Origin: Nitratidesulfovibrio vulgaris str. Hildenborough | GTDB lineage: Bacteria > Desulfobacterota > Desulfovibrionia > Desulfovibrionales > Desulfovibrionaceae | Length of the DNA: 32,000 bases | Reading direction: 5' to 3' | NCBI RefSeq assembly: GCF_000195755.1 | Contig: NC_002937.3 | Span: 2,910,001-2,942,000 of the forward strand | Shown: piece after piece, positions 4,554 through 29,506 of the stretch | How the letters are laid out: each line of letters begins with the position of its first letter | How positions within the stretch are numbered: the stretch's first letter is position 1 | The notes under the pieces: generated by a model | What the model was told of the DNA's origin: nothing | Seen by the model: the letters and a program-made list of their open reading frames with translations, nothing else | Database searches by the model: none | Position numbers and translations under genes: made by a program

Positions 4554-7500
4554 TTAGGCTATTTCGGTCAGCTTGTCGGCCTTGCGCACGTTGACGAGGC
4601 AGGCCTTGCTTTCAGGAATGGTGGTGTTCGGATCGTAGGCACCCACCGTCAGGCGGTTGGTCGAGTCGCCGCATTTGGGCGTCGTCCAGCCATAGGCGAA
4701 GGGCATCCCCACGAGGTGGACGGTCTTGCCCATGACCGTGAACGGCCTGATGCGCACCGTGACCATGGCGATGGCCTCGGCCCTGCCACGGATGCTCTCG
4801 ACGATGACCCCGTCACCGTTCTTGATGCCCTTCTCTTCAGCCAGTTCGGGACTCATCTCGATATAGAGCTGAGGCTCCGTTTCGAGCAGGTTGGGCACGT
4901 TGCGGGTCTCACCGCCGCCGCACCAGTGCTCGGTCAGGCTGTAGGTGGTCAGCACGATGGGGTATTTGGGGTCGGCTGCCTTGGCTATCTGATCCATATC
5001 GGAGGTATGGAACTTGTAGACGGGGCTGGACAGCTGCTTCGAGAACGGATGGCTGTCGAGCGGCGTCTCGGCAGGTTCGTAATGCTCGGGGAAAGGCCCG
5101 TCCATGCGGCCGGTGCCATAGAACTGGGCGAAGCCGTCCTTGTTCATGATGAACGGCAGCTTGCCCTTCTCCTTGTCCGCCATGGGCGGCCATGGACCGT
5201 CGGGCACGTCGCCCACCCATTTGGCACCGTCCCATTCGATGACGGCCTTCTTCGGGTTCCATGGCTTGCCGTTCACGTCCACCGACGCACGGTTGTAGAG
5301 GATGCGCCGGTTCACAGGCCAGCACCACGACCAGTTGGGGAACAGGCCGATATTGGCCTGCATGGGCGTCTGCCGGGCATCGCGACGCTTGGACTTGTTG
5401 CCGTCCTCTTCGGTGTAGCTACCGGTGTACAGCCAGTTCAACGACGAGGTGCTGCCATCGTCCTTCAGTTGTCCGAACGCAGGCACCAGTTGGCCGCGCT
5501 TGTATTCCTTGTCGCCCACCTTGGTGTCGGCCCAGAAGAAGCCGTTGATGCGGCGTGTCCACTCCTCGGGGTCGAACTTGTCGGTCCAGTGCAGCTTCAG
5601 CACCGGGTCGGGCAGCGTACCGCCCTCGGCCTTGTACAGGGCGCGAATCTTGTTCACCAACGGCACGAAGATGTCGGCGAAGTTGCGCGCCTGTCCCGGT
5701 TCCACGGCCTTGTCGAACCATTGCAGCCAGCGTCCGCTGTTGCTGATGGTGCCAGCCTTCTCGACGCGGTGGGCGGAGGGCAGCAGGAACACCTCGGTCT
5801 TGCACGCCTTGGGGTCGACGCCGGGCCGCTTCCAGTTGTCCGTGGTCTCGGAGTTGTGCAACTCGGAGCACACCAGCCAGTCGAGCTTGTCGAGCGCCGC
5901 ACGCATCTTGTTGGTGTTGGGGAAGCTGTTCATGGGGTTCACGCCGAAGATGAAGCCCCCTTTCAGCTTGCCATGATACATGCGGTCCATGACGTACATG
6001 TACGAGTAGTCCTCGCCCTTTTCGAGCTTGGGCAGATACTCGTAGCAGAAGTCGTTCTCGGGGGTCGCCGCGTCACCGAACCAGCCCTTCAGCAGGCTGG
6101 CGACGTACTTCGGCCTGTTGCTCCACCAGTTGGCGCTGTTCTTCAGCGTGGTGACGGGCGTGTTGGCCTTGTTGTAGTCTGCCAGCGTCTGCCACTGTGC
6201 CACCGGCATGGCGTTGTAGCCCGGCAGGATATGGTACAGCAGCGCGTGGTCGGTGGAACCCTGAACGTTGGGTTCACCACGCAGCGCGTTGATACCGCCG
6301 CCCGCCACACCGATGTTGCCCAGAAGCAGCTGGATGAGGGTCGAGGTACGGATGTTCTGCACGCCCACGGTATGCTGCGTCCAGCCAAGGGCGTACAGGA
6401 TGGTGCCCGCCTTGTCGGGTCTGCCCGTGGCACAGAAGGCATCATAGACGCGCAGCAGGTTCTCTTCGGAGACGCCGGTGACGTCGGAGACGTTCTTCAG
6501 CGTATAGCGCTCATAGTGCTTCTTCATCAGATTGAAGACGCACCGCTCGTTCTTGAGGGTGGGGTCCATGACCGGGCCACCGTCGGGTCCCTTCTCGAAC
6601 TCCCATTTGCTGCGGTCGTAGGTGCGGGTCTTGGGGTCGTACCCGCTGAAGATGCCGTCCTCGAAGGCATAGTCCTTGCCCACGACGAACGCGGCGTTGG
6701 TGTAGTTGGCGACGTAGTCCTTGAAGTAGAGGTCCTTCGCGATGATGTGGTTCACCATACCACCGAGGAAGGCGATGTCGGTGCCCGAACGCAGGGGCAC
6801 ATGGAAGTCGCAACGTGCCGACGTGCGCGAGAACTTGGGGTCGACATGCATGAGCACGGCGCCGTTGTCGCGCGCCCGCATGATCCACTTGAAGGCGACA
6901 GGATGATGTTCTGCGGCATTGCTGCCGATGATGAGCACTGCATCGGTATTCTTGATATCGATCCAGTGGTTGGTCATAGCCCCTCGACCGAACGACTCTG
7001 CCAGAGCCGCAACAGTGGGACTGTGTCAGACCCGGGCCTGGTGGTCCATATGGACGACGCCCAGGCCTCTCATGGCTTGATGGATGACGGCACATTCCTC
7101 GTTGGAGGCGTGCGAGGTACCCATCATGAAGATGCTCTCAAGACGGTTGACCGTCTGCCCCTTGTCGTTCTTGAGGATCATGTCCTTGTCGCGGGCGTCC
7201 TTCACGCGACGCGCGATCTGGTTCAGTGTCCAGTCCCAGTCCTTCTCCACCCACTTGTCGCTGTGCGGCGCACGGTAGAGCGGCTTCGTCAGGCGATGGG
7301 GGTTGGTGTACATGGAGAAGAGCGCGGCACCCTTGGCACACAGCGCACCTTCGTTGACCGGGAAATCGGGGTCGCCCTCGGTGGAGACGAGCTTGCCGTT
7401 GCGCACGTAGGCGATGACCTGACAGCAGACGGAACAGAAGGGACACACGGTGCCCACTTCCTTCGCGCCTTCGATCTTGAGTTTGACGGCATAAGCCTGC

Positions 7501-7592
7501 GCGTCTTCAAGATCGAACCCCAGCTGCCCGAGAGAGAGTCCGACGACACTCACCCCGACGAGCTTGAGAAAACTCCGCCGCGTTGTTTTCAT
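4554..7592 (-). CDS. fdhA: Periplasmic formate dehydrogenase catalytic (alpha) subunit, molybdo/tungstopterin, selenocysteine-containing (about 1012 aa with U at the TGA 7026-7028)
   Basis: Track ORFs 7026..7592 and 4554..6977 are in the same frame (7028-6977=51). Reading through the TGA gives HQARV-U-HSPTVAALAESFGRGAMTNHWIDIKN, the conserved FDH active-site context. There is a Tat signal (MKTTRRSFLKL), an N-terminal Fe-S motif (CPFCSVCC) and an AAGGAGAGG ribosome-binding site. Confidence 0.92.
6994..7028 (-). promoter_or_regulatory. Sec-recoding site: UGA (7026-7028) plus candidate SECIS stem-loops downstream in the mRNA
   Basis: The mRNA after the UGA reads CACAGUCCCACUGUUGCGGCUCUGGCAGAGUCG. 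There is a small hairpin ACAGU/ACUGU (7012-7024) and a 6-7 bp hairpin CGGCUCU-GGC-AGAGUCG (about 6993-7009) starting roughly 19-20 nt after the UGA. Folding was done by eye only. Confidence 0.5.
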
Positions 7593-8384: not shown

Positions 8385-10013
8385 CTACTTCGAAGGGCTG
8401 CCGTCTGCACTGGCAACCGCAGAGGCATCCGAAGACACCTGCCCCCCGGCTGTCTCCTGTACAGAAGGCGCGAGAGGCGGCATGGGCTCACCTCTCCAGC
8501 CTCCGCCAAGGGCCTTGAACAGCGTCAGGCGGTTGTTCTGCCGTGCAAGATGCATGGCGATGAGGTTCTGCCGCGCCACGGCATACGAGCGTTGGGCGTC
8601 GAGTTTGTCCAGATAGCCTGCGATTCCGCTCTCGTAACGCTTTGATGCAAGGCTGTAGCTGGTGGCGGTCGCCTCCACCAGAGATGTCTGCGCGCCGGTC
8701 TGCACCGCCAGCGAACGGCCCTGCGCCAGAGTGTCCGACACCTCGCGGAATGCCGTCTGCACCGCCTTCTCGTACTGGGCCACGTAGATGTCCCTGTCCG
8801 CCTCGGCGGTCTCCACTCCGGCGCGAATGGCCCCGGCATGGAAGATGGGCAACGTGACCTGCGGCACGAAACTCCACGTGTGTGCCCCGGCCCGGAACAG
8901 GTTCTCCATGTCGTTGCTGGCGTTGCCATAGCTTGCCGTCAGCCCGATACGCGGAAAGAACTGCGCCCGTGCTGCCCCGATGTTGGCGTTGGCCGCCTTG
9001 AGGGCATGTTCTGCCGCCACGACGTCGGGCCTGCGGGTGAGCACCTCCGAAGGCACCCCTGCGGGCACGTCGGCTAGCGGCACCACATCGGCAAGCCTGC
9101 GGGCAGGCACCATGTCGGGCGTCACAGGCGTACCCAGCAACAGTGCCAGCGCGTTCTCGTCCGCAGTCACCTTCGCTTCGGCAGCCGCCACATTGACACG
9201 CGCCGTATCCACGGTCGTGCGGGCGCGCGCCACATCAAGCTCACCGGCGATGCCGTGCCCGTACCGGCTTTGCACCACCTCGAACGACGCCTGTTCCGTC
9301 TCAAGTATCTCCCGCGCCAAGGCAAGCTGTTCGCGGTCAGCCACCAGCGTCAGATACGCCTGCCCCACCTCTGCCACGAGGGTCAGCTGTACGCTGCGCG
9401 CTGCGGCGTCCGTGGACAGGAACCGCTCAAGGGCCTGTTCCTTCAGGCTGCGGACGCGTCCGAACAGGTCAAGCTCATAGGCACTGAACCCCACCCCGAC
9501 CGTATAGGCATGCGAGACATAGCCTTCGCCCGTGGGAGACAGCGACTGCGCCGTGCGACCCGCATTGCCCGCACCGCTGGCGTCGATATGCGGGAACAGG
9601 TCGGCACGCGCGATGGCGTGCTGGGCACGGGCCTTCTCTATCTGGAGGACGGCCACGCGAAGGTCGCGGTTGCTGGACAGTGCCACGTCGACGAGACGCG
9701 CCATGGGCGCATCCACGACCACCTGCCGCCAGTCCGGCGTCTGCATCGCGGGCTGCGCACCGGTCGGGGCACCGGAATGTGCAAAGGCACCAGATGACCC
9801 GGCTGGTGCAGTCGCGTCGGGTGCCTGTGCCGCAACCTGCGCCACCTGACCTGCGCCCGGTGCCACATCCTGTCCGGCATTCCATGCAGAGGGCATCGCC
9901 GGTGCCGGCCGCCGGTACTCCGGGGCCAGCGTACAACCGCCAACGACCGAAAGGGTCAACGCCAATGCCGCAGCGGAGAGTGCGACACCGTTCATGCCTG
10001 TCTTACGTCTCAT
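8385..10013 (-). CDS. RND efflux outer membrane factor lipoprotein, NodT/OprM family
   Basis: It has a signal peptide plus lipobox (LSVVGGC) and two TolC-like repeats ([18 protein letters not shown]...; ...[23 protein letters not shown]). There is an ATGA overlap with the pump gene stop. Confidence 0.9.
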
Positions 10014-13000
10014 CGTGCCACCTCGCCGGAGGCTTTCGCCTGTCCATCATCCTGCGCCGTCGCAAGGGGGTCGCCCCCATGCGCATCACTCCCGTGTCCA
10101 CCACCTTCAGGGCCACCACCACGTTTCCGCATGGCGAAGCGGTAGACCATCACGAAGAACACGGGCACGAAGTACACCGCCAGCACTGTGGCCGAGAACA
10201 TGCCTCCCATGACGCCGGTGCCGATGGCCCTCTGGCTGCCCGACCCCGCCCCGGTGCTGATGGCCATGGGCAGCACGCCCAGCAGGAAGGCCAGCGAGGT
10301 CATGAGGATGGGCCGCAGCCGCAGGCGTGCCGCCTCGGCCGTGGCATCCAGCAGGGGCCTGCCCGACTTCACGAGGTGCATGGCGAATTCCACGATGAGG
10401 ATGGCGTTCTTGGCCGCGAGGCCGATGGTGGTCAGCAGGCCCACCTGAAAGAACACGTCGTTGTTGAGACCGCGCCCGAGTGTGGCCATGAGCGCACCTA
10501 TGATGCCCAGCGGCACCACGAGGATGACCGCCGTGGGTACCGACCACGACTCGTAGAGGGCTGCAAGGCACAGGAACACCACGAGGATGGAGATGGCATA
10601 CAGTGCCGGGGCCTGCGAACCGCTCATGCGTTCCTGATAGGAAAGGCCCGTCCACGAGATGCCCACACCGGGCGGAAGCTTCGCCGCCATGTCCTCGACG
10701 GCCTGCATGGCCTCACCGGTGCTCTTGCCGGGGGCGGCGGAACCCACCAGTTCGACGGCGGGCAGACCGTTGTAGCGTTCGAGACGCGGCGACCCGTACG
10801 TCCAGCTGGCGGTCGAGAACGCCGAGAACGGCACCATGTTGCCCTGCGCGTTACGCACGTGCCAGGCGTTGATGTCTTCGGGCATCATGCGGAAGGGGGC
10901 GTCACCCTGCAGGTAGACCTTCTTGACGCGCCCGCGGTCGATGAAGTCGTTGACGTACGCACCGCCAAGGGCCGTGGAGAGCACGCCGTTGACGTCCGCC
11001 ATGGTCAGCCCGTGCGCGCCCGCCTTGGCGGCGTCCACGTCGATGCGGAATTGCGGCGTATCCTCCATCCCGTTGGGGCGCAGCACGGCGATGGCGGGGT
11101 TCTGCGCGGCCATGCCCAGAAGCTGGTTGCGCGCCTGCATGAGCGCCTCATGCCCCACGCCCTCCCTGTCCTGCAGGAAAAGGTTGAAGCCCGATGCGTT
11201 GCCGAGTTCCTGCACGGCAGGCGGCGTGAAGGCGTAGACCACCGAGTTGCGGATGCGCGAGAAGGCGCGCATGGCACGCCCGGCCACCGCCGCCGCGCTC
11301 ATGCCCTCGCCCTTGCGTTCATCCCACGGCTTGAGCTGCACGAAGGCAAGCCCCGCGTTCTGACCGCGTCCGGCAAAGCTGAAGCCCGCCACGGTGAACA
11401 GCGAGTTCACCGTCTCCTTCTCATCGACGAGGTAGTGGTGCTCCAGTTTCTTGAGCACTTCGAGGGTCTTCTCCTGTGGTGACCCCGTTGGCAGTTGCAC
11501 GAGGCTGAAGATGACGCCCTGGTCCTCTTCGGGCAGGAACGAGGTGGGCAGCCGCATGAAGAGGAATGCCGTACCCGCCAGCAGCAGCGCGTAGATGCAC
11601 ATCGTCCGGCCCACGCGACCGGTCACGCCCGTCACCTGCTTGCGGTAGCCCCGGCTGGTGCGGTCGAACATGCGGTTGAACCAGCCGAAGAAGCCACCCT
11701 GCGCCTGATGCTCGTGTTTGTGCAGGGGCTTCAGGAAGGTGGCGCACAGGGCCGGGGTGAGCACCAGCGCGACCACCACGGACAGGGTCATGGCAGAGAC
11801 GATGGTGAGTGAGAACTGACGGTAGATGACACCCGACGAACCCTTGATGAACGCCATGGGGATGAACACCGCCGAAAGCACCAGCGCGATGCCCACCAGT
11901 GCCCCGGTGATTTCGCCCATGGACTTGCGGGTGGCCTCGCGAGGGGGCAGCCCCTCCTCGGTCATGATGCGTTCGACGTTCTCGACCACGACGATGGCGT
12001 CGTCCACCAGCAGGCCGATGGCGAGCACCACGCCGAACATGGTCAGCATGTTGATGGAGAAGCCGAAGGCAGCAAGCGCCCCGAAGGTGCCGAGAAGCAC
12101 GACCGGAACGGCGATGGTGGGGATGATGGTGGCACGGATGTTCTGGAGGAACAGGTACATGACGAGGAACACCAGCACGATGGCCTCGGCCAGCGTCTTG
12201 ACCACCTCTTCGATGCTCACGCGCACGAAGGGGGTGGTGTCGTAAGGGAAGACGCAGCGGATGCCTTCCGGCAGGTTCTTGGCCAGACCTTCCATGGTGG
12301 TACGCACACGCTTGACCGTGTCCAGCGCGTTGGCCCCGGTCGCCAGCTTGATGGCGATACCGGTGGAGGGCTTGCCGTTGAAGTGCGAGACGGCGTCGTA
12401 GTTCTCGCTGCCAAGTTCTACCCGTGCGACATCGGCAAGGCGCACCGTCGAGCCATCCTGTTCCACGCGCAGCACGATGCGCTCGAACTGCTCGCGCGTC
12501 TGCAACAGCGACTGCGAGAGGATGGTGAAGCTCATCCCCTGTCCGGGCACGGCAGGCGTACCGCCTATCTGCCCCACCGATATCTGGGTGTTCTGGGCGG
12601 TGATGGCGCTACGCACATCCGCGGGGGTCATCCTGTAGTTCATGAGCTTGTGCGGGTCTAGCCACACGCGCATGGCGTACTGTGCGCCGAAGAGCTGCGT
12701 CTCGCCCACGCCGTCCACACGGCTGATGGGGTCGAGCAGGTAGGTGGCGGCATAGTCGCTGAGGTCGCGCCCCGTCAGGGACGGGTCGTCCGACGCCAGC
12801 GCGATGATCATCAGAAAGCTCGACGTGCTCTTGTTCACCGTGATGCCCTGCCGCTGCACGGCCTCGGGCAGCATGGGCGTGGCCAGCGCAAGCTTGTTCT
12901 GCACCTGCACCTGCGCGATGTCGGGGTCGGTGCTGGCGTCGAAGGTCAGGGTGATGGAGACCTGCCCTGTGGCGTCACTGGTGGACGACATGTAGCGCAG

Positions 13001-15743: not shown

Positions 15744-16580
15744 CTACGCTTCGATGCCGAGCACCTTGCACGCGTTCGCGTACATGACCTTGTGCCGGGC
15801 CTCGTCGCTGAGCGGCATACGGGCGTAGACTTCAAGGGCGTCGGCCTGTTCGATGAACGGATGCGCGCTGGCGAACACCACCTTGTCCTGAATGATGCCG
15901 TTCATGGCCTGAATGTAGGCTTCTGCCATGGGTGCCTGTTCGTACTCCGAGCAGTCCATGTAGACGTTGGCGTTGCGCAGGCAGGCGAAGATGGCTTCGT
16001 TCACGAAGGGGTATCCGCCGTGGCTCATGACGATGCGCAACTCCGGGAAGTCGCGGGCGACGATGTCCACATGCCGCGGGTCGGTGTAGTCCATGACGGC
16101 CCCGGCCACCTGGGGCGGCGGCGCGGTGGTGATGAACACCGGCACATTGAGGTCGCAGCACGCGGCATAGATGGGGTAGTAGCGGGCATCGTCGGGGCGC
16201 AGGTGTGCAAGGTAGGGGTCGATGGAGGCACCGCGCATGCCGAGTTCGTTCACTGCATGACGCAGTTCACGCACGGCGGCCATGCCCTTGTGCGGGTCAA
16301 GCCCCCAGAATCCGATGAACCGCTCGGGATAGGCGCGGCAGAACGCCAGCACGCTGCCGTTGTTCGCCGGAGAACCGTACGTGGTCTCGCTGTCGCGCCC
16401 GGAGATGACAGAGAGGACGACCCCGCGCTTGTCGAGGTCTTCCACAATCTGTTCAAGGGGCTGGGGCTGACGCTTTTCGAACCCTATGGCCTTGCAGGCC
16501 GCCCTGAACATGTTGCTGTTGGCGATACCTGAAATGATTTCGGGCGTATTGGGGCGAAAACGAAAATCGATGACCTTCAT
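15744..16580 (-). CDS. Amidohydrolase_2 (TIM-barrel, ACMSD/LigI-like) superfamily protein with non-canonical active-site motifs
   Basis: 278 aa, with an AAGGAG ribosome-binding site. The overall pattern matches the family (...GVVLSVISG..., RIVMSHGGYPF, KVVFASAHPF). The N-terminal motif is IDFRFRP instead of IDxHxH, and the beta-8 GSDxP motif is replaced by ASAHP. Confidence 0.8.
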   Translation of the reverse strand: MKVIDFRFRPNTPEIISGIANSNMFRAACKAIGFEKRQPQPLEQIVEDLDKRGVVLSVISGRDSETTYGSPANNGSVLAFCRAYPERFIGFWGLDPHKGMAAVRELRHAVNELGMRGASIDPYLAHLRPDDARYYPIYAACCDLNVPVFITTAPPPQVAGAVMDYTDPRHVDIVARDFPELRIVMSHGGYPFVNEAIFACLRNANVYMDCSEYEQAPMAEAYIQAMNGIIQDKVVFASAHPFIEQADALEVYARMPLSDEARHKVMYANACKVLGIEA

Positions 16581-16608
16581 GCTGGGCTCCTTGAGGGTTG
16601 ATGCATAA

Positions 16609-18276
<1,668 letters not shown>

Positions 18277-18356: not shown

Positions 18357-20261
18357 ATGTCGAATCCCCAGAACATGTCCATCCTGGACGCCCAAGGCGA
18401 ATGCGGCGGCGCACACATGGCCACCCGCCCCGGCATCCTCGGCTGGCTCGACGCAAACTTCGAGAAGCCCTTCCTTGCGGTGGGCATGCTCGCCATCATC
18501 TTCATCATCACCTTCCAGACCCTGTACCGCTACATCGGCGTACACATGCACGAAGGGGCGTCTGCCGCCATCTGGACCGAAGAGATGGCCCGCTTCATCT
18601 TCATCTGGATATCCTACCTCGCCCTGCCGGTTGCCATCCGCAACCGGTCGAGCATCCGGGTGGACATCATCTACGACCGCCTGCCCAAGCGTTTTCAGGA
18701 AATGTCGTGGGTCGTGGTCGACCTGTGCTTCCTCGTGCTGGCAGGCACCGTGCTGTGGCAGTCGCTCGACCTCATCAAGATGCAGATCGAGTTTCCGCAG
18801 ACGACCCCTGCCCTCCAGATTTCCTACTACATCCCCTATCTGGTGCTGCCCGTGAGCTTCGGTCTCATGGCGCTCCGCCTCGTCGAAGACCTTTTCGCAC
18901 AGGCCCGCGTCTGCGGCCTCAAGGACACCCTGCTCGCGCTGGCCGCCTGTGCGGCCCTCGCCGCCCCCGTAATGCTGGCCGAAGACCTCGAGCCTCTGCC
19001 CGTCCTCTTCGGTTACTTCGCCATCTTCCTCGCCGTGGGCGTGCCCATCGCCATCGGCCTCGGCCTTGCAGCACTGGCGACCATCATCGCCGCCGGGACC
19101 CTGCCCATCGAATACATCGCGCAGGTGGCCTTCACCTCCATCGACAGCTTCCCCATCATGGCCATCCCCTTCTTCATCGCTGCCGGGGTGTTCATGGGCG
19201 CGGGCGGTCTCTCGCGCAGGCTTCTCACTCTTGCCGACGAGATGCTGGGTTCGCTGCATGGCGGCATGGCCCTCGCCACCATCGGCACCTGCATGTTCTT
19301 CGCCGCCATCAGCGGGTCCGGCCCCGCCACCGTCGCTGCCATCGGGTCGCTCACCATCCCCGCCATGGTCGAGCGCGGCTACGACAAGTACTTCTCCGCC
19401 GCAGTGGTGGCAGCCGCCGGTGCCATCGGCGTCATGATTCCCCCCAGCAACCCCTTCGTGGTCTACGGCGTCTCGGCGCAGGTCTCCATCGGGAAGCTCT
19501 TTCTGGGCGGCATCGTGCCCGGAGTGCTCACCGGTCTGGCCCTCATGGTCTACAGCTACTGGTACTCCAAGAAGCGCGGCTGGAAGGGCGAAGTGCGCGT
19601 GCGCAACCTCAGGACCTTCACCAGGGCCCTGTGGGACGCCAAGTGGGCCCTCATGGTTCCGGTCATCGTCCTCGGCGGCATCTACGGCGGCATCATGACC
19701 CCCACCGAAGCCGCAGCGCTGGCCGCCTTCTACGGACTGTTCGTGGGCTGCTTCATCCACCGCGAACTCAACTGCGGCAGCCTCTACGACTGCATCGTCG
19801 AAGCAGCAGGCACCTCGGCCGTCGTCATCGTGCTCATGGCCATGGCCACCATCTTCGGCAACATCATGACCATCGAAGAGGTGCCCACCGCCATCGCCAC
19901 CGCGATGCTCAACCTCACCGAGAACAAGATAGCCATCCTGATGCTCATCAACGTGCTGCTCATCGTCATCGGCACGTTCATGGAAGCACTGGCGGCCATC
20001 GTCATCCTCACCCCCATCCTGCTGCCCATCGTGCTGAAGGTGGGTGTCGACCCCGTGCACTTCGGCGTCATCATGGTGGTCAACCTCGCCATCGGCTTCG
20101 TGCCCCCGCCCGTGGGCGTGAACCTCTTCGTCGCCAGCGGCGTGGCCCACGCCAAGATAGAGCACCTCTCCAAGGTGGTCATGCCGCTCATCGCCATCAT
20201 GATAGGCGTGCTGCTGCTCATCACCTACGTTCCGGCCCTCCCGATGTTCCTCGCGGAGTAG
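18357..20261 (+). CDS. TRAP transporter fused small/large permease (DctQ-DctM fusion)
   Basis: AAGAGG ribosome-binding site; 634 aa. The N-terminal 4-TM DctQ-like part is followed by a DctM-like polytopic domain (IPFFIAAGVFMGAGGLS..., FFAAISGSGPATVAAIGS...). Confidence 0.9.
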   Translation: MSNPQNMSILDAQGECGGAHMATRPGILGWLDANFEKPFLAVGMLAIIFIITFQTLYRYIGVHMHEGASAAIWTEEMARFIFIWISYLALPVAIRNRSSIRVDIIYDRLPKRFQEMSWVVVDLCFLVLAGTVLWQSLDLIKMQIEFPQTTPALQISYYIPYLVLPVSFGLMALRLVEDLFAQARVCGLKDTLLALAACAALAAPVMLAEDLEPLPVLFGYFAIFLAVGVPIAIGLGLAALATIIAAGTLPIEYIAQVAFTSIDSFPIMAIPFFIAAGVFMGAGGLSRRLLTLADEMLGSLHGGMALATIGTCMFFAAISGSGPATVAAIGSLTIPAMVERGYDKYFSAAVVAAAGAIGVMIPPSNPFVVYGVSAQVSIGKLFLGGIVPGVLTGLALMVYSYWYSKKRGWKGEVRVRNLRTFTRALWDAKWALMVPVIVLGGIYGGIMTPTEAAALAAFYGLFVGCFIHRELNCGSLYDCIVEAAGTSAVVIVLMAMATIFGNIMTIEEVPTAIATAMLNLTENKIAILMLINVLLIVIGTFMEALAAIVILTPILLPIVLKVGVDPVHFGVIMVVNLAIGFVPPPVGVNLFVASGVAHAKIEHLSKVVMPLIAIMIGVLLLITYVPALPMFLAE

Positions 20262-20366: not shown

Positions 20367-22853
20367 ATGCAATGCTGCAACCAGCTTTCGCCCCATGAAC
20401 AGCGCCTTCAGGACAAGATCGAAGGCAAGGTCGACCGCTACCGTGCAACCCACGAGCGCGTGTTCACCATCCTTGAAAGCTTCGACAACACCCGCCCCCG
20501 CATCGACGTGGAGCGCGCCAAGTACTTCACCGAATCCATGAAGGCCACCGAAGGCCAGCCCCTGCCCCTGCGCTGGGCCAAGGCGCTGATGCACATCGCC
20601 GAGAACATGACCGTGTACATCGACGACCATCAGCTCATCTGCGGTCGCGCCGGGTATCAGGGCCGTTACGGCGTGCTGTACCCCGAACTCGACGGCGACT
20701 TCCTCGGCACGGCCATCGAAGACCTGCCCAACCGCGCCGAATCGCCCTTCGCCATCACCCCTGAAGACGCCCGCGTGGTCGTCGAGGAGATTGCCCCCTT
20801 CTGGAAGGGCAAGACCTACCATGAGGCGCTGAACCTCGCGCTGCCCGCAGACGTCCACAAGCTCACCTACGACGACCCGCAGGGCCTCATGTCCCGCTTC
20901 ATCGTCAACGAGACCTCGTCGTTCCGCTCCTCCATCCAGTGGGTGCACGACTACGAGAAGGTGCTCAAGCGCGGCTTCCGCAGCATCAAGGAAGAAGCCC
21001 TCGAGAAGATCGCCGCTCTTGACCCCATGAGCCCGTGCGACAACGTGGAGAAGCGCCCCTTCCTCGAAGCCATCGTCATCGTGTGCGACGCCATCATCCT
21101 GTGGGCCAAGCGCCACGCCAAGCTCGCCGCAGAACTCGCCGCCAAGGAAACCGATCCCACCCGCAAGCGTGAGCTTGAGACCATGGCCGAAATCTGCGCC
21201 TGGGTTCCCGAGAACCCGGCCCGCACCTTCCACGAGGCCGTGCAGGCCCAGTGGTTCACCCAGGTGTTCTCGCGCATCGAACAGAAGACCGGCACCATCG
21301 TGTCCAACGGTCGCATGGACCAGTACTTCTGGCCCTTCTACGAAAAGGACCTCGCCGAAGGCCGCATCACCGAAGACAGCGCCCTCGAACTGCTCGAGTG
21401 CATGTGGGTGGGCATGGCCCAGTACGTCGACCTGTACATCTCCCCCACCGGCGGTGCCTTCAACGAAGGCTACGCCCACTGGGAGGCCGTCACCATCGGC
21501 GGGCAGACCCCCGAAGGACGCGACGCCACCAACGACCTGACCTACCTCTTCCTGAAGTCCAAGCGCGAATTCCCGCTGCACTACCCCGACCTTGCGGCAC
21601 GCATCCACTCGCGCTCGCCCGAACGCTACCTGTGGGAAGTTGCCGAGACCATCAAGGACGGTTCCGGCTTCCCCAAGCTGATCAACGACGAAGAGGTCGT
21701 GCCCCTGTACGTCTCCAAGGGAGCGACCTTCGCCGAGGCCCTCGACTACGCCGTCTCCGGCTGCACCGAGGCACGTATGCCCAACCGCGACACCTACACC
21801 AGCGGCGGCGCGTACATCAACTTCGCGGCAGCGCTCGAGATGGTGCTCTACAACGGCAAGATGCTGAAGTACGGCGACACCGACCTCGGCGCCCACACCG
21901 GCGACCCGTGCGAATTCAAGACATGGGAAGAGTTCTGGAACGCCTACGTCACCCAGCACCACCTGTTCCTCAAGACCGCCTTCGTGCAGCAGCACATCAT
22001 CAACAACCTGCGCGCACGCCACTTCGCCCAGCCCATGGGTTCGTCGCTGCACGACCTGTGCATGAAGCACTGCCTCGACCTGCACACCCCGCAGATTCCC
22101 GAGGGCATCAACCTCGGCTACTTCGAGTACATGGGCTTCGGCACGGTGGTCGACTCCCTGTCCGCCATCAAGAAGCTGGTGTTCGAAGACAAGAAGCTGA
22201 CCATGGGTGAACTCATCGAAGCCCTGAAGTGCAACTTCGAAGGCAAGGAAGACATCCAGCAGCTGCTGAAGAGCGCGCCCTGCTACGGCAACAACGACGA
22301 CTACGCCGACAGCATCGCCCGCGACATCGACGCCCTGTCCGTCAAGTACGGCAGACGCTACTCGCCCGAACTCGGCATGCACAACGACGTGCGCTACGTG
22401 CCGTTCACCTCGCACGTGCCCTTCGGCCGCGTCGTCTCCGCGACGCCCAACGGTCGCAAGGCATGGTCGGCCCTGTCGGACGGTTCGTCGGCCTCGCATG
22501 GTGCCGACGTGAACGGCCCCACCGCCATCCTCCAGTCCAACTTCAACTCCAAGAACTACGGCATGCGCGACCGCGCCGCCCGTATGCTGAACATCAAGTT
22601 CACGCCCAAGTGCGTGGAAGGCGAAGAAGGCTCGCAGAAGCTGGTGTCCTTCATCCGCACCTTCTGCGACCTCAAGCTGTGGCACGTGCAGTTCAACGTC
22701 ATCAACAAGGAGACCCTGCTCGCCGCCCAGCGCGACCCCGAGAAGTACCGCAACCTCATCGTCCGCATCGCGGGCTACAGCGCCTACTTCGTGGACCTGT
22801 CGCCCGACCTGCAGAACGACCTCATCGCCCGCACCGGCCACGACGTGATGTAA
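20367..22853 (+). CDS. iseG: Glycyl radical enzyme of the eliminase class; best fit isethionate sulfite-lyase (C-S lyase), not pyruvate formate-lyase
   Basis: The ATG is preceded by AAGGAGA; 828 aa. The glycyl radical motif is [13 protein letters not shown] (Gly803). The catalytic loop SGCTEARMP (Cys466, Glu468) is the GCxE type with a single Cys. The gene is flanked by a TRAP importer and an activase. The substrate assignment rests on recall of characterised IseG/IslA enzymes, not on an alignment. Confidence 0.85.
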
Positions 22854-23029: not shown

Positions 23030-23953
23030 ATGAGCTCCATCGCCGACAGAAAGACCACAGGGATCACGTTCAACATCCAGAAATACTCCGTCCATGATGG
23101 CCCCGGCATCCGCACGGTGGTGTTCCTCAAGGGATGTCCCCTGAAATGCCGCTGGTGCAGCAACCCCGAATCGCAGCGCAAGTCCGTTGAACTGGCCTAC
23201 AACACGGGACGCTGTCTCACTCTCGCCAAGTGCGTCCGTTGCGTGGAAATCTGTACGGCCGGAGCCATCTCCCGCGCGGAGGACGACACCATCAGCATCG
23301 ACCGCGCGCTGTGCAACGACTGTGAGCAGCTGTGCTCCGGCGCCTGCCCCTCCAACGCCCTCATCACCTACGGTGCCCACAAGACCGTGGACGAGGTGCT
23401 TCGCGCCGTCGAACAGGACAGCCTCTTCTACGCCCGTTCCGGTGGCGGCATGACCATCTCCGGCGGCGAACCCTTCGCCCAGCCCGCCTTCACGCTGGCA
23501 CTGCTGCGCGAGGCACGCCGTCGCCGTGTGCATACCGCCGTCGAGACATGCGGCTACGCCTCGTGGGACGACATGGCAGCCGCGCTGCCCTTCCTCAACT
23601 ACGTCCTCTACGACATCAAGAATCTCGACGACGCCCGGCACAAGGAAGCCACCGGCGTCTCCAACCAGCGCATCGTCGAGAACCTGCGCGCCCTGCGCGC
23701 CGAATTTCCGGGAATCCCCGTCCTCGTCCGCACACCGGTCATTCCCGGCTTCAACGACAACGAGGCCGACATCGCCGCCATTGCCGCGCTCACCCGCGAA
23801 CTTGGTGTGTCATACCAGCTGTTGCCCTACCACCGTCTCGGTACCCAGAAGTACCATTTCCTCGACAGGGAGGCGCCCATGGGTGAGGTGACCCTCGATG
23901 CGGAGACCATGCGCAGGCTGGAGGCGGTCGTGGCGCAGACGGCGGACAGCTGA
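23030..23953 (+). CDS. iseH: Glycyl radical enzyme activating enzyme (radical SAM, with ferredoxin-like insert)
   Basis: It has the radical SAM motif CPLKCRWC near the N-terminus, additional clusters CVRCVEIC and CNDCEQLCSGAC, and the SAM-binding motif GGEP. The track ORF from 22229 is an over-extension. The ribosome-binding site is weak. Confidence 0.9.
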   Translation: MSSIADRKTTGITFNIQKYSVHDGPGIRTVVFLKGCPLKCRWCSNPESQRKSVELAYNTGRCLTLAKCVRCVEICTAGAISRAEDDTISIDRALCNDCEQLCSGACPSNALITYGAHKTVDEVLRAVEQDSLFYARSGGGMTISGGEPFAQPAFTLALLREARRRRVHTAVETCGYASWDDMAAALPFLNYVLYDIKNLDDARHKEATGVSNQRIVENLRALRAEFPGIPVLVRTPVIPGFNDNEADIAAIAALTRELGVSYQLLPYHRLGTQKYHFLDREAPMGEVTLDAETMRRLEAVVAQTADS

Positions 23954-24392: not shown

Positions 24393-25814
24393 ATGAAAAA
24401 GATCATTGAACATATTGAAAGTATTTTTGATATTCTTAGCGACGGCATCTATATCACCCAACGCGACGGCACGACCCTGCTGGTCAACCGCATGTACGAG
24501 CAGCTGACCGGCCTCTCTTTCAAGGACCTCAGGGGGCGCAACGTTCACGACCTCGTCGCCGACGGCATCTTCGACACCATCCTGAACCCCGAAGTGGTGC
24601 GGACCAAGCGTCCGGCCGTTTCCGTGCAGCACGTCCGGCAGAGCAAGAAGATCATCCTGCGTGGCTACCCGGTCTTCGACGAACATGGCGAAGTCTGCCT
24701 CGTGGTCACGTTCGCCCGTGACATCACCATGATCACGCAATTCCGAGAGCAGATTGCCCAGCAGAAGCAGCTCATCGAGACCTTCAACGACCGTATCGAA
24801 TGCATGCTGCATGAGCAGGTGCGCAACAGCCAGCCCGTCTTCGAAAGCGAAGTCATGCAGCAGGTGCTCGACCTCTTGCAGCGGGTGGCTGCCACGGATG
24901 CCAACATCCTCATTCTGGGCGAGACGGGCGTGGGCAAGGACGTGTTCGCGAGGCTAGCCCACGAATACAGCCCGCGCAGCAGCAAGATGTTCCTCAAGGT
25001 GGACTGTGGCAGCATCGCCGAGAACCTCATCGAATCAGAGTTGTTCGGCTACGTTCCCGGTGCGTTCTCCGGAGCCAGTTCCAAAGGCAAGGCGGGCTAT
25101 TTCGAAATCGCCGACGGCGGTACCGTCTTCCTCGATGAAATCGGTGAACTGCCGCTGCCCATGCAAGCCAAGCTGCTGCGTGTGCTACAGGACAGGGAGG
25201 TCATGCGCGTAGGCTCGTCACAGGCACGCAAGGTGGATGTGCGCATCATCGCCGCCACCAACCGCGACCTCGCCGAAGACGCCAAGGCGGGCAAATTCCG
25301 CAGCGACCTCTACTATCGCCTCAATGTCGCCGTACTGGACCTGCCGCCGCTACGTGAACGGCAACAGGACATCATCCCCCTCGTTGAGCGGTTTCTCGAT
25401 CGCTTCAATGCCAAGTACCGCCGCAACATGACCCTGCCCAAGGGCACACGGCAGGCACTCCAGAACTACAAGTGGCCCGGTAACGTGCGCGAGATGCAGA
25501 ACCTCATCCAGAGCCTCGTGGTGACGTGCGAGGGGCATTCCATCAAGCCGGAGCACCTCCCTCCGCACATACAGAAGGCCGCGCGCAATCGCACGGCATA
25601 CACGCCTCCCGCGCCCGATGACGCCCGACCGCTGAAGGAGATCATGGCAGACATCGAGCGCGAAATCCTCGAAGAGGCCGTGCGTACGCACGGTTCGGTG
25701 TGCAAGGTGGCACGCATGTACAAGATCAGCCGCACCACACTCTTCCGCAAGCTGCGCGGCTCATCGCTCGCCGGGGTCTCGGGGGATGAGGAGCAGGAGA
25801 ACACCGGACAGTAA
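24393..25814 (+). CDS. Sigma-54-dependent transcriptional activator (PAS sensor - AAA+ - Fis-type HTH; no receiver domain)
   Basis: The PAS-like N-terminus is [27 protein letters not shown]. Walker A is GETGVGKD and the GAFTGA-variant loop is GAFSGA. It also has [16 protein letters not shown] and a C-terminal HTH ([16 protein letters not shown]). Confidence 0.9.
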
Positions 25815-26138
25815 TGGACTGCGAAAACAGCAGGAGTACTGTCTCCCCCCTCTCAGGAGCACGACTTCACCCCTTCTCCTGTTTCACAAGCGCTGTGGAA
25901 CACAAAGGCCACAGCCCATGCCGTGAAACGCAGCCCGGGTAAGCCTCCACCCAACGATTCCTGAAGGGTGCAGCCACACGAGCACGGACGCGCGACGCCA
26001 TACAGGCATTGCACTGCTGTCCCCTTCCACACACGTCGAGAATACCACGTTCTCGACTTGCGTGACGCATTGTCTCATGATGCGCCATCGCAGCGGTGCC
26101 TGACACCTACGCAAGCCCATTGCCAACTGATAACATCC

Positions 26139-26188
26139 CCAGAACAAGAATCCCCCACGTCCGGATACGTGAGGGATTCTTGTTCTGG
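26139..26188 (-). terminator. Long hairpin: perfect 16-bp stem (CCAGAACAAGAATCCC / GGGATTCTTGTTCTGG) plus inner 5-bp stem (CACGT/ACGTG), abutting the CCA end of the tRNA fragment
   Basis: Read directly. On the minus strand it begins at the CCA of the tRNA 3' fragment, like a native tRNA terminator. There is no strong U-tract. Confidence 0.5.
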
Positions 26189-26213
26189 CGCGCCCGGGAG
26201 GATTCGAACCCCC
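26186..26213 (-). other. tRNA 3'-end fragment (T-arm, acceptor 3' strand, discriminator G, CCA) without a matching 5' half; candidate att core
   Basis: The minus strand reads GGGGG-TTCGAAT-CCTCC-CGGGCGC-G-CCA. The required 5' acceptor strand GCGCCCG is absent from the next 90 nt, so this is not a complete tRNA gene. Confidence 0.7.
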
Positions 26214-26282
26214 GGCCAAGAGCTTAGAAGAAGTCTGCTCAAGAACTCTCCGGATTCCTATCTTTCTGAAAACAAGAGTGTT

Positions 26283-27656
26283 ATGAGCGTGTTCAGTACA
26301 AAGCCGTTCGACTGGGAATCCTGCGAACCTCCGCGCAAATGGCAACCAAATGGTAACCGCATGAGTGACCGCAGCTGGCACACAATCCCCGGCAGGAAGG
26401 GGCTGCTCTACAGGGAGCATGCTACCCGCAAGTTCTCTCGCAGGGCCGACCGCTTCTGGGCAATCAGGCATATGGTTGACGGCAAGCGTATCGTCGAGAT
26501 GCTTGGCTGGACATCTGAAGGCTGGACTGCCGACATGGCCGCCACCCTGCTTGCCGAACTTGAGCGCAACGTCAAGCAGGGCCTGCGCCCCCAGACCCTG
26601 AAGGAGAAGCGCCAGATGGCAGCCGAGGCTCAGGCTGCGGCTGCTCAACAGGCACAGCTTGATGCCTTGAAGGACATCACCTTCGGCGAACTGGCCGAGC
26701 GATACGCAGCGTGGGCCAAGTCTACCCGCATCAGCGGGCACAAGATGCAGCGACTGCTTGAGCTGCACGTCCTGCCACGCCTGCACTCCATGCCTGCGGC
26801 CTCGATCACGCCGCAGCACCTCAACGAGCTTCGCTCTGAACTGGAGCAGACCACCCCGTTGCGTGGTCGCGGCAAGGCCGAGGGCCGCGGACTCAGCGCC
26901 CAGACCGTACTGCACTGCCTGAAGGCTGTGCGCGAAGTGTACAACTACGCCCGCGAGACGCCCCACCCCGACTTCCCCGAGCGCATGCTCTACTCCGGCA
27001 AGAACCCTGCCGTGCTGAGCCGGCGCGGGCATGGCGTGCGTCTGCCCCGCAGTGACGCCCGACGCCTCCGCATCCTCAATGATGCCGAGATAAGCGCCCT
27101 GCTCTCCTACCGTGGCCAGAACGTCGTCGAGACCTCCGAACTGCACGACATGATCCTGATATCGCTCGACACCGGCATGCGCGCCGGTGAACTGGTGCGG
27201 CTGCGGACGGAGGACATCGACGTCGACCATGGCACCATCCGCATATACAGCGGCTCGGACGCGGGCATCACCAAGGGTGGACGTACCCGCATCGTGCATG
27301 CAGGCCACCTCTTCGCGGAGAGCATCACCATGCTGCGCCGGCGCGTGGGCTCCCCCGGGCTGCTCTTTCCGGGACGAGGCGGCGCGGTACGCAACACGAC
27401 GGCCGTGAGCCGTGCGATGGCGCACATCTGCGCCACGCTTGGCCTCAATGCCGACGTGACGGACGACCGCAACCGCATCGTATGGCACACCCTGCGGCAC
27501 ACCTACGCCACGCGCATGCTGGAGGCCGGAATCGACATCTACACCCTCAAAGAGCTTCTGGGACACTCCAGCGTGGCCGTCACCGAACGCTACCTGCATC
27601 TGTGCGACCGGGCCAAACGCAATGCAGCGCTGGCCCGGCTCACACGAGGCGAGTGA
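26283..27656 (+). CDS. int: Tyrosine site-specific recombinase (phage integrase family)
   Basis: The catalytic-domain signature is WHTLRHTYATRMLEAGIDIYTLKELLGHSSVAVTERYLH (HxxR...H...Y), with an earlier TGMRAGEL (Arg I). The start at 26283 is the first in-frame ATG after the tRNA fragment. The track ORF from 25968 runs through the att region. Confidence 0.9.
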   Translation: MSVFSTKPFDWESCEPPRKWQPNGNRMSDRSWHTIPGRKGLLYREHATRKFSRRADRFWAIRHMVDGKRIVEMLGWTSEGWTADMAATLLAELERNVKQGLRPQTLKEKRQMAAEAQAAAAQQAQLDALKDITFGELAERYAAWAKSTRISGHKMQRLLELHVLPRLHSMPAASITPQHLNELRSELEQTTPLRGRGKAEGRGLSAQTVLHCLKAVREVYNYARETPHPDFPERMLYSGKNPAVLSRRGHGVRLPRSDARRLRILNDAEISALLSYRGQNVVETSELHDMILISLDTGMRAGELVRLRTEDIDVDHGTIRIYSGSDAGITKGGRTRIVHAGHLFAESITMLRRRVGSPGLLFPGRGGAVRNTTAVSRAMAHICATLGLNADVTDDRNRIVWHTLRHTYATRMLEAGIDIYTLKELLGHSSVAVTERYLHLCDRAKRNAALARLTRGE

Positions 27657-27657
27657 T

Positions 27658-27906
27658 CTACAACTCGGGGACGACAATGTGCCGCACTCCCTTGCTTTCG
27701 AGGTAGGAGACGAAGGCTTCGCGCGGGTAGTAGATCTGCTCGCCGATGACCAGACGCTCTCGCGGCCCGCGCCCGAGTTTGTCGTCGTTCGCCAGCGTCT
27801 TGGGCGACAGCCCCCCGCCGGTGAACCACTTCGAGGCCTTGCGGGCTATCAGGGGCGGCAACTGGGGCACAAGGTTATCCAGCACAGTCTTATCGTTCAT
27901 GGTCAT
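27658..27906 (-). CDS. Small excisionase/AlpA-like HTH DNA-binding protein (putative)
   Basis: 82 aa, tail-to-tail with int. It has a GGGAGGAA ribosome-binding site. The pattern ...LSPKTLANDDKLGRGPRERLVIGEQIYYPREAFVSYLES resembles excisionase-family HTH proteins. Confidence 0.55.
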   Translation of the reverse strand: MTMNDKTVLDNLVPQLPPLIARKASKWFTGGGLSPKTLANDDKLGRGPRERLVIGEQIYYPREAFVSYLESKGVRHIVVPEL

Positions 27907-27964
27907 TTCCTCCCGACGTTAAGGTTATCTCACAGGGCGGCCTGTAACTTCGCCAACAGCCCCG

Positions 27965-28330
27965 TCACAGGGCGCTCTCAGGTCGTCGCGGCATAGACCC
28001 CTGGCCACACTGCGCCTCTTCGCTCAACTCCCCGCGCAGCTTCCTCACGCAATGCGACTTGGCCTTCAGCCGTAGTGCATCGGCCTCAACCCGGGTGCGG
28101 GTGATGGTCAGCCCCCGGTCGAGATGGTCCAGAGCCTCTTCCCGGGTACGCCTCCAGCCGCCCGGCGCGGTCTGCGCCTGACTCTCTTCACGCGAGCCTG
28201 CCCGCACCAGAAAACGCTTGTCGTCGGCAAGCACGACCACGCCACTGGTGATCACAAGCCCCTCGCCCTGACGGGGAAAGAACGCCCTGAACAGGACCTC
28301 TCCCTGCCGATACGGATCATTCTGCGTCAT
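27965..28330 (-). CDS. Hypothetical protein (island cargo)
   Basis: A strong AGGAGGAAGTC ribosome-binding site precedes the ATG at 28330 (MTQNDPYRQGEVLF...). I recognise no domain. Confidence 0.5.
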   Translation of the reverse strand: MTQNDPYRQGEVLFRAFFPRQGEGLVITSGVVVLADDKRFLVRAGSREESQAQTAPGGWRRTREEALDHLDRGLTITRTRVEADALRLKAKSHCVRKLRGELSEEAQCGQGSMPRRPESAL

Positions 28331-28414
28331 GACTTCCTCCTGATTGACCATGCGATGACGAAGCATCCCGCCGCCAGCACCGCGCAGATGCCACACGGAA
28401 CCACAAGCCAGGGG

Positions 28415-28627: not shown

Positions 28628-28712
28628 GGCCTTGTCCTTGGCTGAGGTTCCGTCATCCTGAAGCCGGGCGGGAGCGCGATGACCGTCATCGCACCCGCGA
28701 CCGGCCCCGGGA

Positions 28713-29355: not shown

Positions 29356-29506
29356 GAGAGAGATGCCCCGCTGTTCTCATTTACTGGTGTGAAGAGATGG
29401 GCCAGCAGTGAGCCTGAAGGTCCCTGTATATGAATATACTTGCGCAAGTTCGGGGTTCGCATGATATCTGGTATGGAACGTGAAATGACTACAGTCTGAA
29501 AGGAGA

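Follow-up and report, generated by a model that had tools for sequence, protein, structure and literature searches.

The 32,000-nucleotide window examined here is the whole stretch from position 2,910,001 to 2,942,000 of contig NC_002937.3 of Nitratidesulfovibrio vulgaris Hildenborough. On its minus strand it contains DVU2820, whose product starts at an ATG codon, reads MKVIDFRFRP at its N terminus, and has an amidohydrolase fold. From left to right, the window carries a selenocysteine-containing formate dehydrogenase, a resistance-nodulation-division (RND) efflux system with a TetR regulator, and DVU2820; to the right of DVU2820, about 690 bp of intergenic DNA are followed on the plus strand by genes for a binding protein of the tripartite ATP-independent periplasmic (TRAP) type, DctQM, the isethionate sulfite-lyase IseG, its activase, and a PAS-domain sigma-54 activator (Table 1). 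Our results make it very probable that DVU2820 is a functional accessory of this sulfite-lyase module.

DVU2820 matches the Pfam family PF04909 (Amidohydro_2) with an E value of 1e-36 and 127.6 bits, against a cutoff of 26.4, in a local match that spans residues 41 to 276 only and does not by itself place the N-terminal motif; a comparison with NCBIfam profiles gave no meaningful match. An AlphaFold2 model calculated from a 60-sequence alignment has a mean predicted local distance difference test (pLDDT) score of 96.7 and a predicted template modeling (pTM) score of 0.93. When this model was compared with known structures in Foldseek, the top match was PDB entry 3IRS, with a template modeling (TM) score of 0.82, followed by gamma-resorcylate decarboxylase, LigW, LigJ, and ACMSD, with E values of 1e-13 to 1e-19 for 3IRS, 2DVT, 4QRN, 6DXS, and 2WM1. 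We are therefore confident in the predicted assignment of DVU2820 to the (beta/alpha)8-barrels of the Amidohydro_2 family, which is how the initial annotation had read the protein.

A library clustered at 50% identity was searched exhaustively, which gave 5067 matches at E values up to 0.001, and 117 full-length representatives from this search were aligned with MAFFT. Relatives with an IDxHxHP motif line up column for column with IDFRFRP of DVU2820, and Arg7 and Arg9 therefore occupy the positions of the two strand-1 histidines. In profile-to-PDB alignments, the strand-8 motif FASAHPF (family consensus FgsayPf) is paired with YAMDYPY in LigW and with FSTDWPF in gamma-resorcylate decarboxylase, which places Ala239 in the column of the strand-8 Asp, while VFITTAP lies opposite PLYIHPA of LigW, so that the strand-5 His is lost too, with Thr151 in its place. 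His187, in the MSHGG motif of strand 6, is invariant in alignment A1. The initial annotation had already noted the two Arg residues in the His positions, the missing Asp, and the retained MSHGG, and had judged a canonical metal site unlikely, all of which agrees with the replacement of the ligands on strands 1, 5, and 8. Its count of three changed motif positions was too low, as the loss of the strand-5 His had been overlooked and four of the five canonical positions are changed in DVU2820, giving the pattern RR-T-H-A.

Among 80 aligned sequences (the window protein and 79 orthologues at 52 to 86% identity), 68 positions are at least 98% conserved, and Arg7, Arg9, Thr151, His187, and Ala239 each reach this level. 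The five canonical positions co-vary, being either RR-T/M-H-A/G/S or HH-H-H-D; RR patterns account for about 70 of the 117 representatives and HH-H-H-D for 12, with few intermediates. A third Arg, Arg62 in a GRD motif, is typical of the RR group and joins the conserved pair that had been noted at the barrel mouth. The alignments thus show a canonical metal site that has been dismantled as a unit within a large clade. This absence concerns the canonical site only, and conserved Asp, Glu, and His residues, including His97, could form a non-canonical one. The positions that follow the strands are the usual active-site face of a triosephosphate isomerase (TIM) barrel, and conserved polar residues follow every predicted strand of DVU2820 (D5/R7/R9, R62/D63, D95/H97, D121/Y123, T151, H187/Y190, E212/Y213/E214, and S238), a set that, on its positions, looks like an active site. 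It is plausible that the Arg residues bind a sulfonate or a carboxylate.

The alignments indicate that the substitution pattern is a trait of a clade, which includes PDB 3IRS/3K4W, and is not peculiar to DVU2820. For convenience we refer to this 3IRS/BB4693-like group as the RxR clade; its joint pattern, found in DVU2820, has R-x-R following strand 1, G-R following strand 2, T or M replacing the His of strand 5, a retained strand-6 His, and A, G, or S replacing the Asp of strand 8. The closest solved structure to DVU2820 is 3IRS/3K4W itself, the "uncharacterized TIM-barrel protein BB4693" of Bordetella bronchiseptica, which was the top phmmer match over the full length (E = 2e-37; profile E = 2e-86) and shares with DVU2820 the IDFRLRP and VGRNS motifs, the strand-6 His (SHGNWPW), and the loss of the strand-8 Asp (GTAYP). 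It differs in that identity is only about 30%, in that H97, E212, E214, and H240 of the lyase-linked group are absent, and in that it comes from an aerobic proteobacterium. The entry was deposited in 2009 by structural genomics with no assigned function, and we found no publication on BB4693 in the literature searched. The better-known relatives ACMSD, LigW, gamma-resorcylate decarboxylase, and LigJ hydratase, which act on small anionic organic acids, have the Pfam family, the barrel fold, and the strand-6 His in common with DVU2820. Structural alignments gave 16 to 21% identity to the metal-dependent members, which bind Zn or Mn through the strand-1 His/Glu, the strand-5 His, and the strand-8 Asp, all replaced in DVU2820.

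On plasmids of aerobic proteobacteria, distant RxR members are located in a variety of clusters for organic-acid catabolism. One in Caballeronia has as neighbors a mandelate-racemase-family enzyme, a major facilitator superfamily (MFS) transporter, and a fumarylacetoacetate-hydrolase-family protein; one on plasmid pMNOD01 of Methylobacterium nodulans (L164, 1-7810) has an MFS transporter on one side and a Rieske ring-hydroxylating dioxygenase system on the other and is adjoined by a TauE/SafE sulfite exporter. The latter, a single case, would be expected to be another setting with an alpha-hydroxysulfonate intermediate and sulfite release. Two more plasmid relatives, whose motifs were not checked, lie beside a tricarboxylate-transporter binding protein (Hydrogenophaga) and a coenzyme A ligase (Paracoccaceae). 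The RxR clade as a whole probably handles anionic organic acids, and within it the tie to sulfite-lyases is limited to the DVU2820 orthogroup and its paralogue.

The evidence for this tie comes from a scan of genomes, one per species, which yielded 80 loci with relatives at 52 to 86% identity; the locus genes were found by tblastn with defined queries whose identities had been checked with Pfam. The taxa represented are Desulfovibrionaceae (Bilophila and Mailhella among them), Desulfomicrobium, Desulfobacterales, Desulfarculia, and Desulfacinum and, among the Firmicutes, Desulfotomaculum, Desulforamulus, Desulfosporosinus, and Peptococcaceae. An IseG/HpsG-type enzyme (at least 60% identity) was present within the fetched flanks at 52 of the 80 loci, and a lyase or microcompartment genes at 66; of the other 14, all except one offer under 10 kb of flanking sequence on one side of the gene or on both. 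In the reverse direction, we fetched 80 metagenome loci with an IseG query, and 16 of the 21 IseG-type loci with at least 9 kb on both sides contained the orthologue. Three of the five exceptions are microcompartment loci, in which the distance between orthologue and lyase can reach about 10 kb (L055, L060, and L068). The gene orders seen include the orthologue divergent from the lyase, a TRAP-TRAP-orthologue order, the orthologue followed after 16 to 23 bp by an MFS gene, and lyase-activase-orthologue, so the partnership persists through repeated shuffling of gene order and across phyla. A strong co-occurrence with IseG/IslA-type enzymes, which had been put forward as a check on the gene's role, is thus seen in both directions. 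For HpfG, a dehydratase that uses 2,3-dihydroxypropane-1-sulfonate (DHPS) and releases no sulfite, the published clusters in one paper list no such gene, which is a weak negative.

A second line of evidence comes from paralogues at 52 to 56% identity (L076 to L080), which are second copies in genomes that also hold the IseG-linked copy, namely, Desulfovibrio piger, Nitratidesulfovibrio sp. HK-II, and two Desulfovibrio metagenome-assembled genomes. In two of these loci (L076 and L077), the order is lyase-activase-paralogue-transporter-regulator, and the L077 lyase is nearest to PDB 6LON, with 1442 bits versus 1286 for IseG. The 6LON structure is that of HpsG, which cleaves DHPS to sulfite and hydroxyacetone. 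The type of DVU2820-like protein tracks the type of lyase. Both types have 74 conserved core residues in common, including every candidate active-site residue, and the consistent switches in the paralogue are His240 (conserved in the IseG-linked orthologues) to Ala, Arg176 to Ala, and five positions within residues 19 to 49, between strands 1 and 2. Such switches fit a pair of small, related ligands set apart by a single carbon substituent. Hydroxyacetone has been reported not to be used further by Bilophila, and sulfite is therefore the product that both systems exploit.

Many database orthologues have 303 to 313 residues rather than 277 to 280, the extra residues being C-terminal and beyond the end of the Pfam domain at residue 276. 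Among the 79 loci with a complete orthologue, a tail of about 30 residues is present at 29 of 29 with microcompartment genes and at 0 of 50 without them; the Fisher P value of 3e-22 overstates independence, since the loci are phylogenetically related, yet there are at least three distinct tail types. The microcompartment genes, confirmed with Pfam, encode a BMC-domain shell protein, PduS-like and EutJ-like proteins, EutQ, and a phosphotransacetylase. The main tail type reads ..QDLVGEIVREVMARLGR, with variants ..IIESVIKELAKKG (Firmicutes) and ..LRKILEGVSAEILQKVG, and is strongly amphipathic, with a hydrophobic moment of 0.64 to 0.74 versus a core median of 0.26. Most tails resemble the N-terminal peptides of Escherichia coli K-12 EutC (MDQKQIEEIVRSVMASMGQ) and EutE (MNQQDIEQVVKAVLLKMQ), as read from the genome, for which a targeting role is established. 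Like EutC, EutE, and PduP cargo, the orthologues carry a terminal amphipathic peptide after a low-complexity linker, and this peptide agrees with the EutC signal at about 8 of 12 positions, the difference being that it is C-terminal rather than N-terminal. DVU2820 itself ends at residue 278 and has no tail, and its locus has no shell genes. These sequence patterns suggest that, where the lyase is encapsulated, the DVU2820 orthologue would be encapsulated with it. The tails and the HpsG-linked paralogue, neither of which the initial annotation had foreseen, considerably restrict the likely roles of the protein.

Bilophila, Mailhella, and related gut lineages (L008, L011, L016, L018, L019, L022, and L031; e.g., L019:10892-10933) carry a Pro-rich tail, ..FPLPFQPFVPSGR, and among open reading frames (ORFs) longer than 40 residues in the 80 loci, the motif P[LM]PF.PF was found only at the C terminus of DVU2820 orthologues. 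This tail may represent a novel type of signal for microcompartment targeting or docking. EutC-like amphipathic peptides were also seen in two other ORFs (L067:13989-14612 and L042:15243-15920), of which one is EutQ-like with an internal peptide (PIIVSKIVEEVMACLN) and the other is an unassigned protein of about 200 residues with an N-terminal one (MEQDKLVESIVAEVLKRLL).

The predicted regulation places DVU2820 with the lyase operon as well. Kazakov et al. (2015), at a time when the lyase was regarded as a pyruvate formate-lyase, assigned DVU2820 to the regulon of the sigma-54 activator DVU2827 together with DVU2822 to DVU2825, predicted a sigma-54 promoter of its own for DVU2820, and described orthologues as cotranscribed with MFS transporters. 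The DVU2820 element GGGCATGGTTCTTGCC has three mismatches to the strict sigma-54 consensus and retains GG-N10-GC, and the element of the divergent operon, TGGCACGTTCCCTGCT, has one mismatch. A scan of the window with the strict consensus gave 13 matches versus 19.5 expected from shuffled controls, that is, matches not rarer than chance. A near-identical GGCAYG-N4-TCTTGC element lies 50 to 72 nucleotides upstream of the orthologue in the five closest genomes (L001 to L005), and such an element is found within 250 nucleotides of the orthologue at 31 of 76 loci, against a background of 0.058 per 250 nucleotides. The DVU2820 promoter proposed in the initial annotation is therefore a candidate supported by this conservation and by the published prediction, a lone match not being significant. 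From these sequences, DVU2820 and the IseG operon are predicted to share a divergent promoter region under the control of sigma-54 and DVU2827. An AT-rich stretch (gtatctacttgttttataataactatacaaaac..., 17028-17090) interrupts the otherwise GC-rich DNA that separates DVU2820 from the transporter gene, and it may be a binding region for the activator or integration host factor (IHF) common to both divergent promoters.

These observations lead us to speculate about what the accessory might do. Acetaldehyde and bisulfite combine quickly into a very tight adduct, whose dissociation constant is low micromolar and whose spontaneous dissociation is slow at neutral pH. As the lyase frees both of its products together, especially in a closed shell, it would lock them up, away from sulfite reductase and aldehyde dehydrogenase. 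We tentatively propose, as a reading with less than even support, that DVU2820 speeds the break-up of this acetaldehyde-bisulfite adduct. The protein would act downstream of the lyase on a carbonyl-bisulfite adduct formed spontaneously from the two products, which would be 1-hydroxyethanesulfonate (acetaldehyde plus sulfite) or, in the HpsG system, the hydroxyacetone adduct; such a ligand is proposed because what both systems have in common is a hydroxy-sulfonate going in and sulfite and a carbonyl compound coming out, and because it would be found within the compartment. Arg7, Arg9, and Arg62 would form a cationic pocket at the barrel mouth for a small (hydroxy-)sulfonate, His187 or a conserved Asp or Glu would take the proton of the alpha-hydroxyl group, and the Arg cluster would stabilize the departing sulfite, with no metal needed. 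Free sulfite would thereby be kept available for dissimilatory sulfite reductase and free acetaldehyde for aldehyde dehydrogenase.

A functional analogy is offered by hydroxynitrile lyases, whose hydrolase-family scaffold uses a base to help split an alpha-hydroxy adduct, giving a carbonyl compound and an anionic leaving group; they differ in having unrelated folds and in releasing cyanide rather than sulfite. Within the Amidohydro_2 fold, the LigI-type lactonases are metal independent and show that it can act without a metal. In 4-sulfomuconolactone hydrolase, an enzyme placed with the LigI-type enzymes, sulfite is released after a carbon bearing both a hydroxyl and a sulfonate group has formed, a collapse like the one proposed for DVU2820. 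Both of these keep the His and Asp residues for catalysis, which DVU2820 has lost. The existence of 4-sulfomuconolactone hydrolase is confirmed in the literature, and neither it nor a LigI-type enzyme gave a significant sequence match in PDB searches with DVU2820. On a broader and doubtful but specific formulation, DVU2820 and its relatives may represent a new enzyme class, a metal-free lyase of the amidohydrolase fold for alpha-hydroxyalkanesulfonates that forms the third core constituent of the sulfite-lyase systems for isethionate and DHPS and is packaged into the microcompartment in Bilophila and many sulfate reducers, in some lineages through a new Pro-rich signal.

Several points weigh against the adduct-lyase proposal. 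The idea draws on genomic context and chemical reasoning. Assays of IseG and IslA detect acetaldehyde and sulfite without a DVU2820-type protein, which is thus dispensable for turnover in vitro, and alpha-hydroxysulfonates are generally regarded as collapsing spontaneously. No enzyme for alpha-hydroxysulfonate cleavage was found in the literature searched. Ketone-bisulfite adducts are much weaker than those of aldehydes, which makes the need less obvious for the HpsG-linked paralogue. The Arg-lined pocket is deduced from the positions of residues relative to the strands, and D95, H97, D121, E212, and E214 could instead build a non-canonical metal site with a different chemistry. The RxR clade is not sulfonate specific, given the varied organic-acid clusters of its distant members. 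The targeting function of the tails is a prediction, and the Bilophila-type Pro-rich tail (PLPFQPF) is not a classical amphipathic peptide; to our knowledge, this class of motif is not among the targeting signals recognized so far. Finally, Desulfovibrio cuneatus DSM 11391 (L030), the sole exception with full flanks, has neither a glycyl radical enzyme nor a microcompartment gene within 10 kb. In that locus the orthologue lies at 10001-10828, and an MFS transporter and a sigma-54 activator are present.

Among the alternatives, it is possible, though less likely than not, that the protein carries out some other chemistry in the same pathway, perhaps at a non-canonical metal site built from D95, H97, D121, E212, E214, and H187. 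Possible roles of this kind include the detoxification or conversion of acetaldehyde or of sulfite-derived side products such as S-sulfonated cofactors. Such a site is favored by the large number of carboxylates and His residues whose conservation is particular to the lyase-linked orthogroup (H97, E212, and E214 are not conserved in 3IRS), and the linkage to the pathway supports this explanation as strongly as it does adduct cleavage. However, no particular alternative reaction is favored by positive evidence, and the sole feature common to IseG and HpsG is the conversion of a hydroxy-sulfonate into sulfite and a carbonyl compound.

A non-catalytic partner appears unlikely, though it has several observations on its side. 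In this case, the barrel would bind isethionate, DHPS, or sulfite, or would dock on the lyase, and would serve as a chaperone, a carrier, or a protective or assembly factor. Of the five canonical positions for catalysis or metal binding, four have been lost, the protein type follows the lyase type as would be expected of a physical partner or a substrate-specific binder, co-encapsulation with the lyase is predicted, and the lyase is active alone in vitro. Against this, the conservation resembles that of an active site, with an invariant His187 and Asp, Glu, Tyr, and Arg residues after every strand, and a simple carrier would be of no obvious use where there is no microcompartment, as in D. vulgaris.

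It is improbable that DVU2820 acts upstream of the lyase, either preparing the substrate by hydrolysis of, for example, isethionate or taurine conjugates (esters or amides) or working with the transporter, even though the gene is often in one transcription unit with an importer (TRAP-TRAP-orthologue, or orthologue-MFS with a 16- to 23-bp gap) and both the name and the fold of the family point to a hydrolase. DVU2820 has neither the canonical metal-water machinery nor the Asp base of metal-free relatives such as LigI, and isethionate itself is transported and cleaved, as is established for IseG and IslA. In addition, the targeting-type tails place the protein with the lyase in the compartment and not at the membrane, no transporter adjoins the gene in microcompartment loci, and DHPS systems are served by the same type of protein. 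The predicted co-encapsulation argues against an upstream substrate-preparing enzyme as well as against a cytoplasmic regulator and a transport accessory. We accordingly rejected a role as regulator or sensor for the enhancer-binding protein, and one as transport accessory, the gene not being beside transporters in microcompartment loci; a racemase was rejected as isethionate has no stereocenter.

Least likely is that DVU2820 is a conventional amidohydrolase or decarboxylase that depends on a metal and has its ligands shifted in the alignment, or that it is an unrelated neighbor: the Pfam match skips the first 40 residues, so that an alignment by eye could in principle be wrong, and sigma-54 consensus matches arise by chance at this stringency, but the HxH relatives align with RxR, Thr151 and Ala239 stand at the His and Asp positions, and the five positions co-vary, which excludes the canonical hydrolase, and the two-way co-occurrence across phyla despite shuffling and the promoter element kept in L001 to L005 speak against the unrelated neighbor.

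Some of these observations had precedents. The motif change is present in the clade structure 3IRS (2009), and the link to the neighboring operon, whose lyase was later shown to be IseG, dates from 2015. In Burrichter et al. (2021), HMPREF0179_00649, a putative orthologue of DVU2820 named there as a "hypothetical protein, predicted amidohydrolase," appears uncommented at one edge of the islAB microcompartment cluster of Bilophila. Beyond that table entry, the gene is discussed nowhere in the papers on IseG/IslA and the reviews consulted, which covered microcompartments and, in one case from 2026, glycyl radical enzymes, and the literature searched yielded no functional, expression, fitness, or knockout study of DVU2820 or HMPREF0179_00649. 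Two 2026 preprints on metallo-bile-salt hydrolases of Bilophila concern proteins of PF07969 of about 100 kDa with intact metal sites, which are unrelated to DVU2820. New here are the occurrence of orthologues beside IseG-type enzymes across Desulfobacterota and Firmicutes, the HpsG-linked paralogue, and the match between tail and microcompartment. The link of DVU2820 to the sulfite-lyase systems of gut and environmental sulfidogens is strong, specific, and largely unremarked, and the "uncharacterised accessory activity" of the initial annotation remains an accurate statement of its status.

The isethionate and DHPS sulfite-lyases are the entry points through which Bilophila and Desulfovibrio turn host- and diet-derived sulfonates into hydrogen sulfide, which has been tied to colitis and colorectal cancer. 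Current schemes of these pathways comprise a transporter and the lyase with its activase, joined in some species by microcompartment proteins; the protein described here is a further one, and its presence is almost as universal as that of the lyase. Should it act on the adduct or otherwise gate the supply of sulfite, a missing step would be filled and a possible target for inhibition gained, and it would explain how a closed compartment copes with two mutually reactive products. The "simply released" acetaldehyde and sulfite would then hide an enzymatic step that controls the rate at which taurine-derived sulfonates in the gut become hydrogen sulfide. The same result would provide initial access to the function of a large clade of amidohydrolase-fold proteins without the metal site. 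Moreover, the correlation of tails with microcompartments offers two candidate targeting signals for engineering, one EutC-like and C-terminal and the other Pro-rich.

Table 1. Features of DVU2820 and the adjoining isethionate sulfite-lyase operon, in window coordinates
Feature	Position	Strand	Basis
DVU2820 coding sequence, 278-residue Amidohydro_2 protein lacking the canonical metal site	15744..16580	-	ORF listing, Pfam, AlphaFold2, Foldseek, phmmer
Ribosome-binding site AAGGAG, 8 nucleotides 5' of the DVU2820 ATG	16588..16593	-	Read from the sequence
Arg7-Phe8-Arg9 codons, strand-1 HxH columns	16554..16562	-	Sequence and alignment columns
Arg62 codon, GRD motif after strand 2, third conserved Arg	16395..16397	-	Alignments; 3IRS has VGRNS
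Thr151 codon, column of the strand-5 metal-binding His	16128..16130	-	Profile alignment, co-variation table
His187 codon (CAC), MSHGG; sole canonical active-site His kept; candidate general base	16020..16022	-	Alignment A1
Ala239 (strand-8 Asp column) and His240 codons	15861..15866	-	Alignments
Candidate DVU2820 sigma-54 (-24/-12) promoter GGGCATGGTTCTTGCC	16621..16636	-	GG-N10-GC kept; conservation; Kazakov et al. (2015)
Candidate sigma-54 promoter TGGCACGTTCCCTGCT of the divergent transporter and lyase operon	17177..17192	+	One consensus mismatch; Kazakov et al. (2015)
TRAP solute-binding protein, DctP family, DVU2822	17266..18276	+	Pfam PF03480, E = 7e-76; start codon read
Fused TRAP membrane component DctQ-DctM, DVU2823	18357..20261 (start approximate)	+	tblastn orthologues; L037 orthologue has Pfam matches to DctQ and DctM
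Isethionate sulfite-lyase IseG, glycyl radical enzyme, DVU2824	20367..22853	+	PDB 5YMR match; Pfam PFL-like and Gly_radical
Radical S-adenosylmethionine activating enzyme IseH, DVU2825	23030..23953 (start approximate)	+	Pfam Radical_SAM and Fer4_12
PAS-domain sigma-54 enhancer-binding protein, DVU2827	24393..25814	+	Pfam; Kazakov et al. (2015), predicted regulator of both divergent promoters

The identity of the lyase is secured by PDB 5YMR, the crystallized IseG of D. vulgaris Hildenborough, to which the window protein matches over residues 24 to 828 with 1886 bits; the differences between the two are apparently engineered surface substitutions. By its context, DVU2822 is judged to be the isethionate-binding component of the transporter. 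Elsewhere in the window, an in-frame TGA at 7026-7028, within HQARV*HSPTVA, divides the formate dehydrogenase alpha subunit (4554-7592, minus strand) into two ORFs, which fits a selenocysteine codon rather than a true stop. Five ORFs of 173 to 597 residues at 25884-31055 have no Pfam match at E values up to 1e-5, and some of them may be spurious frames of GC-rich DNA. A metagenome contig, Ga0302246_1001338 (L082), encodes proteins 99 to 100% identical to DVU2820, the transporter, the lyase, the activase, and the regulator of the window, and D. vulgaris Hildenborough or a near-identical strain was therefore present in that sample.

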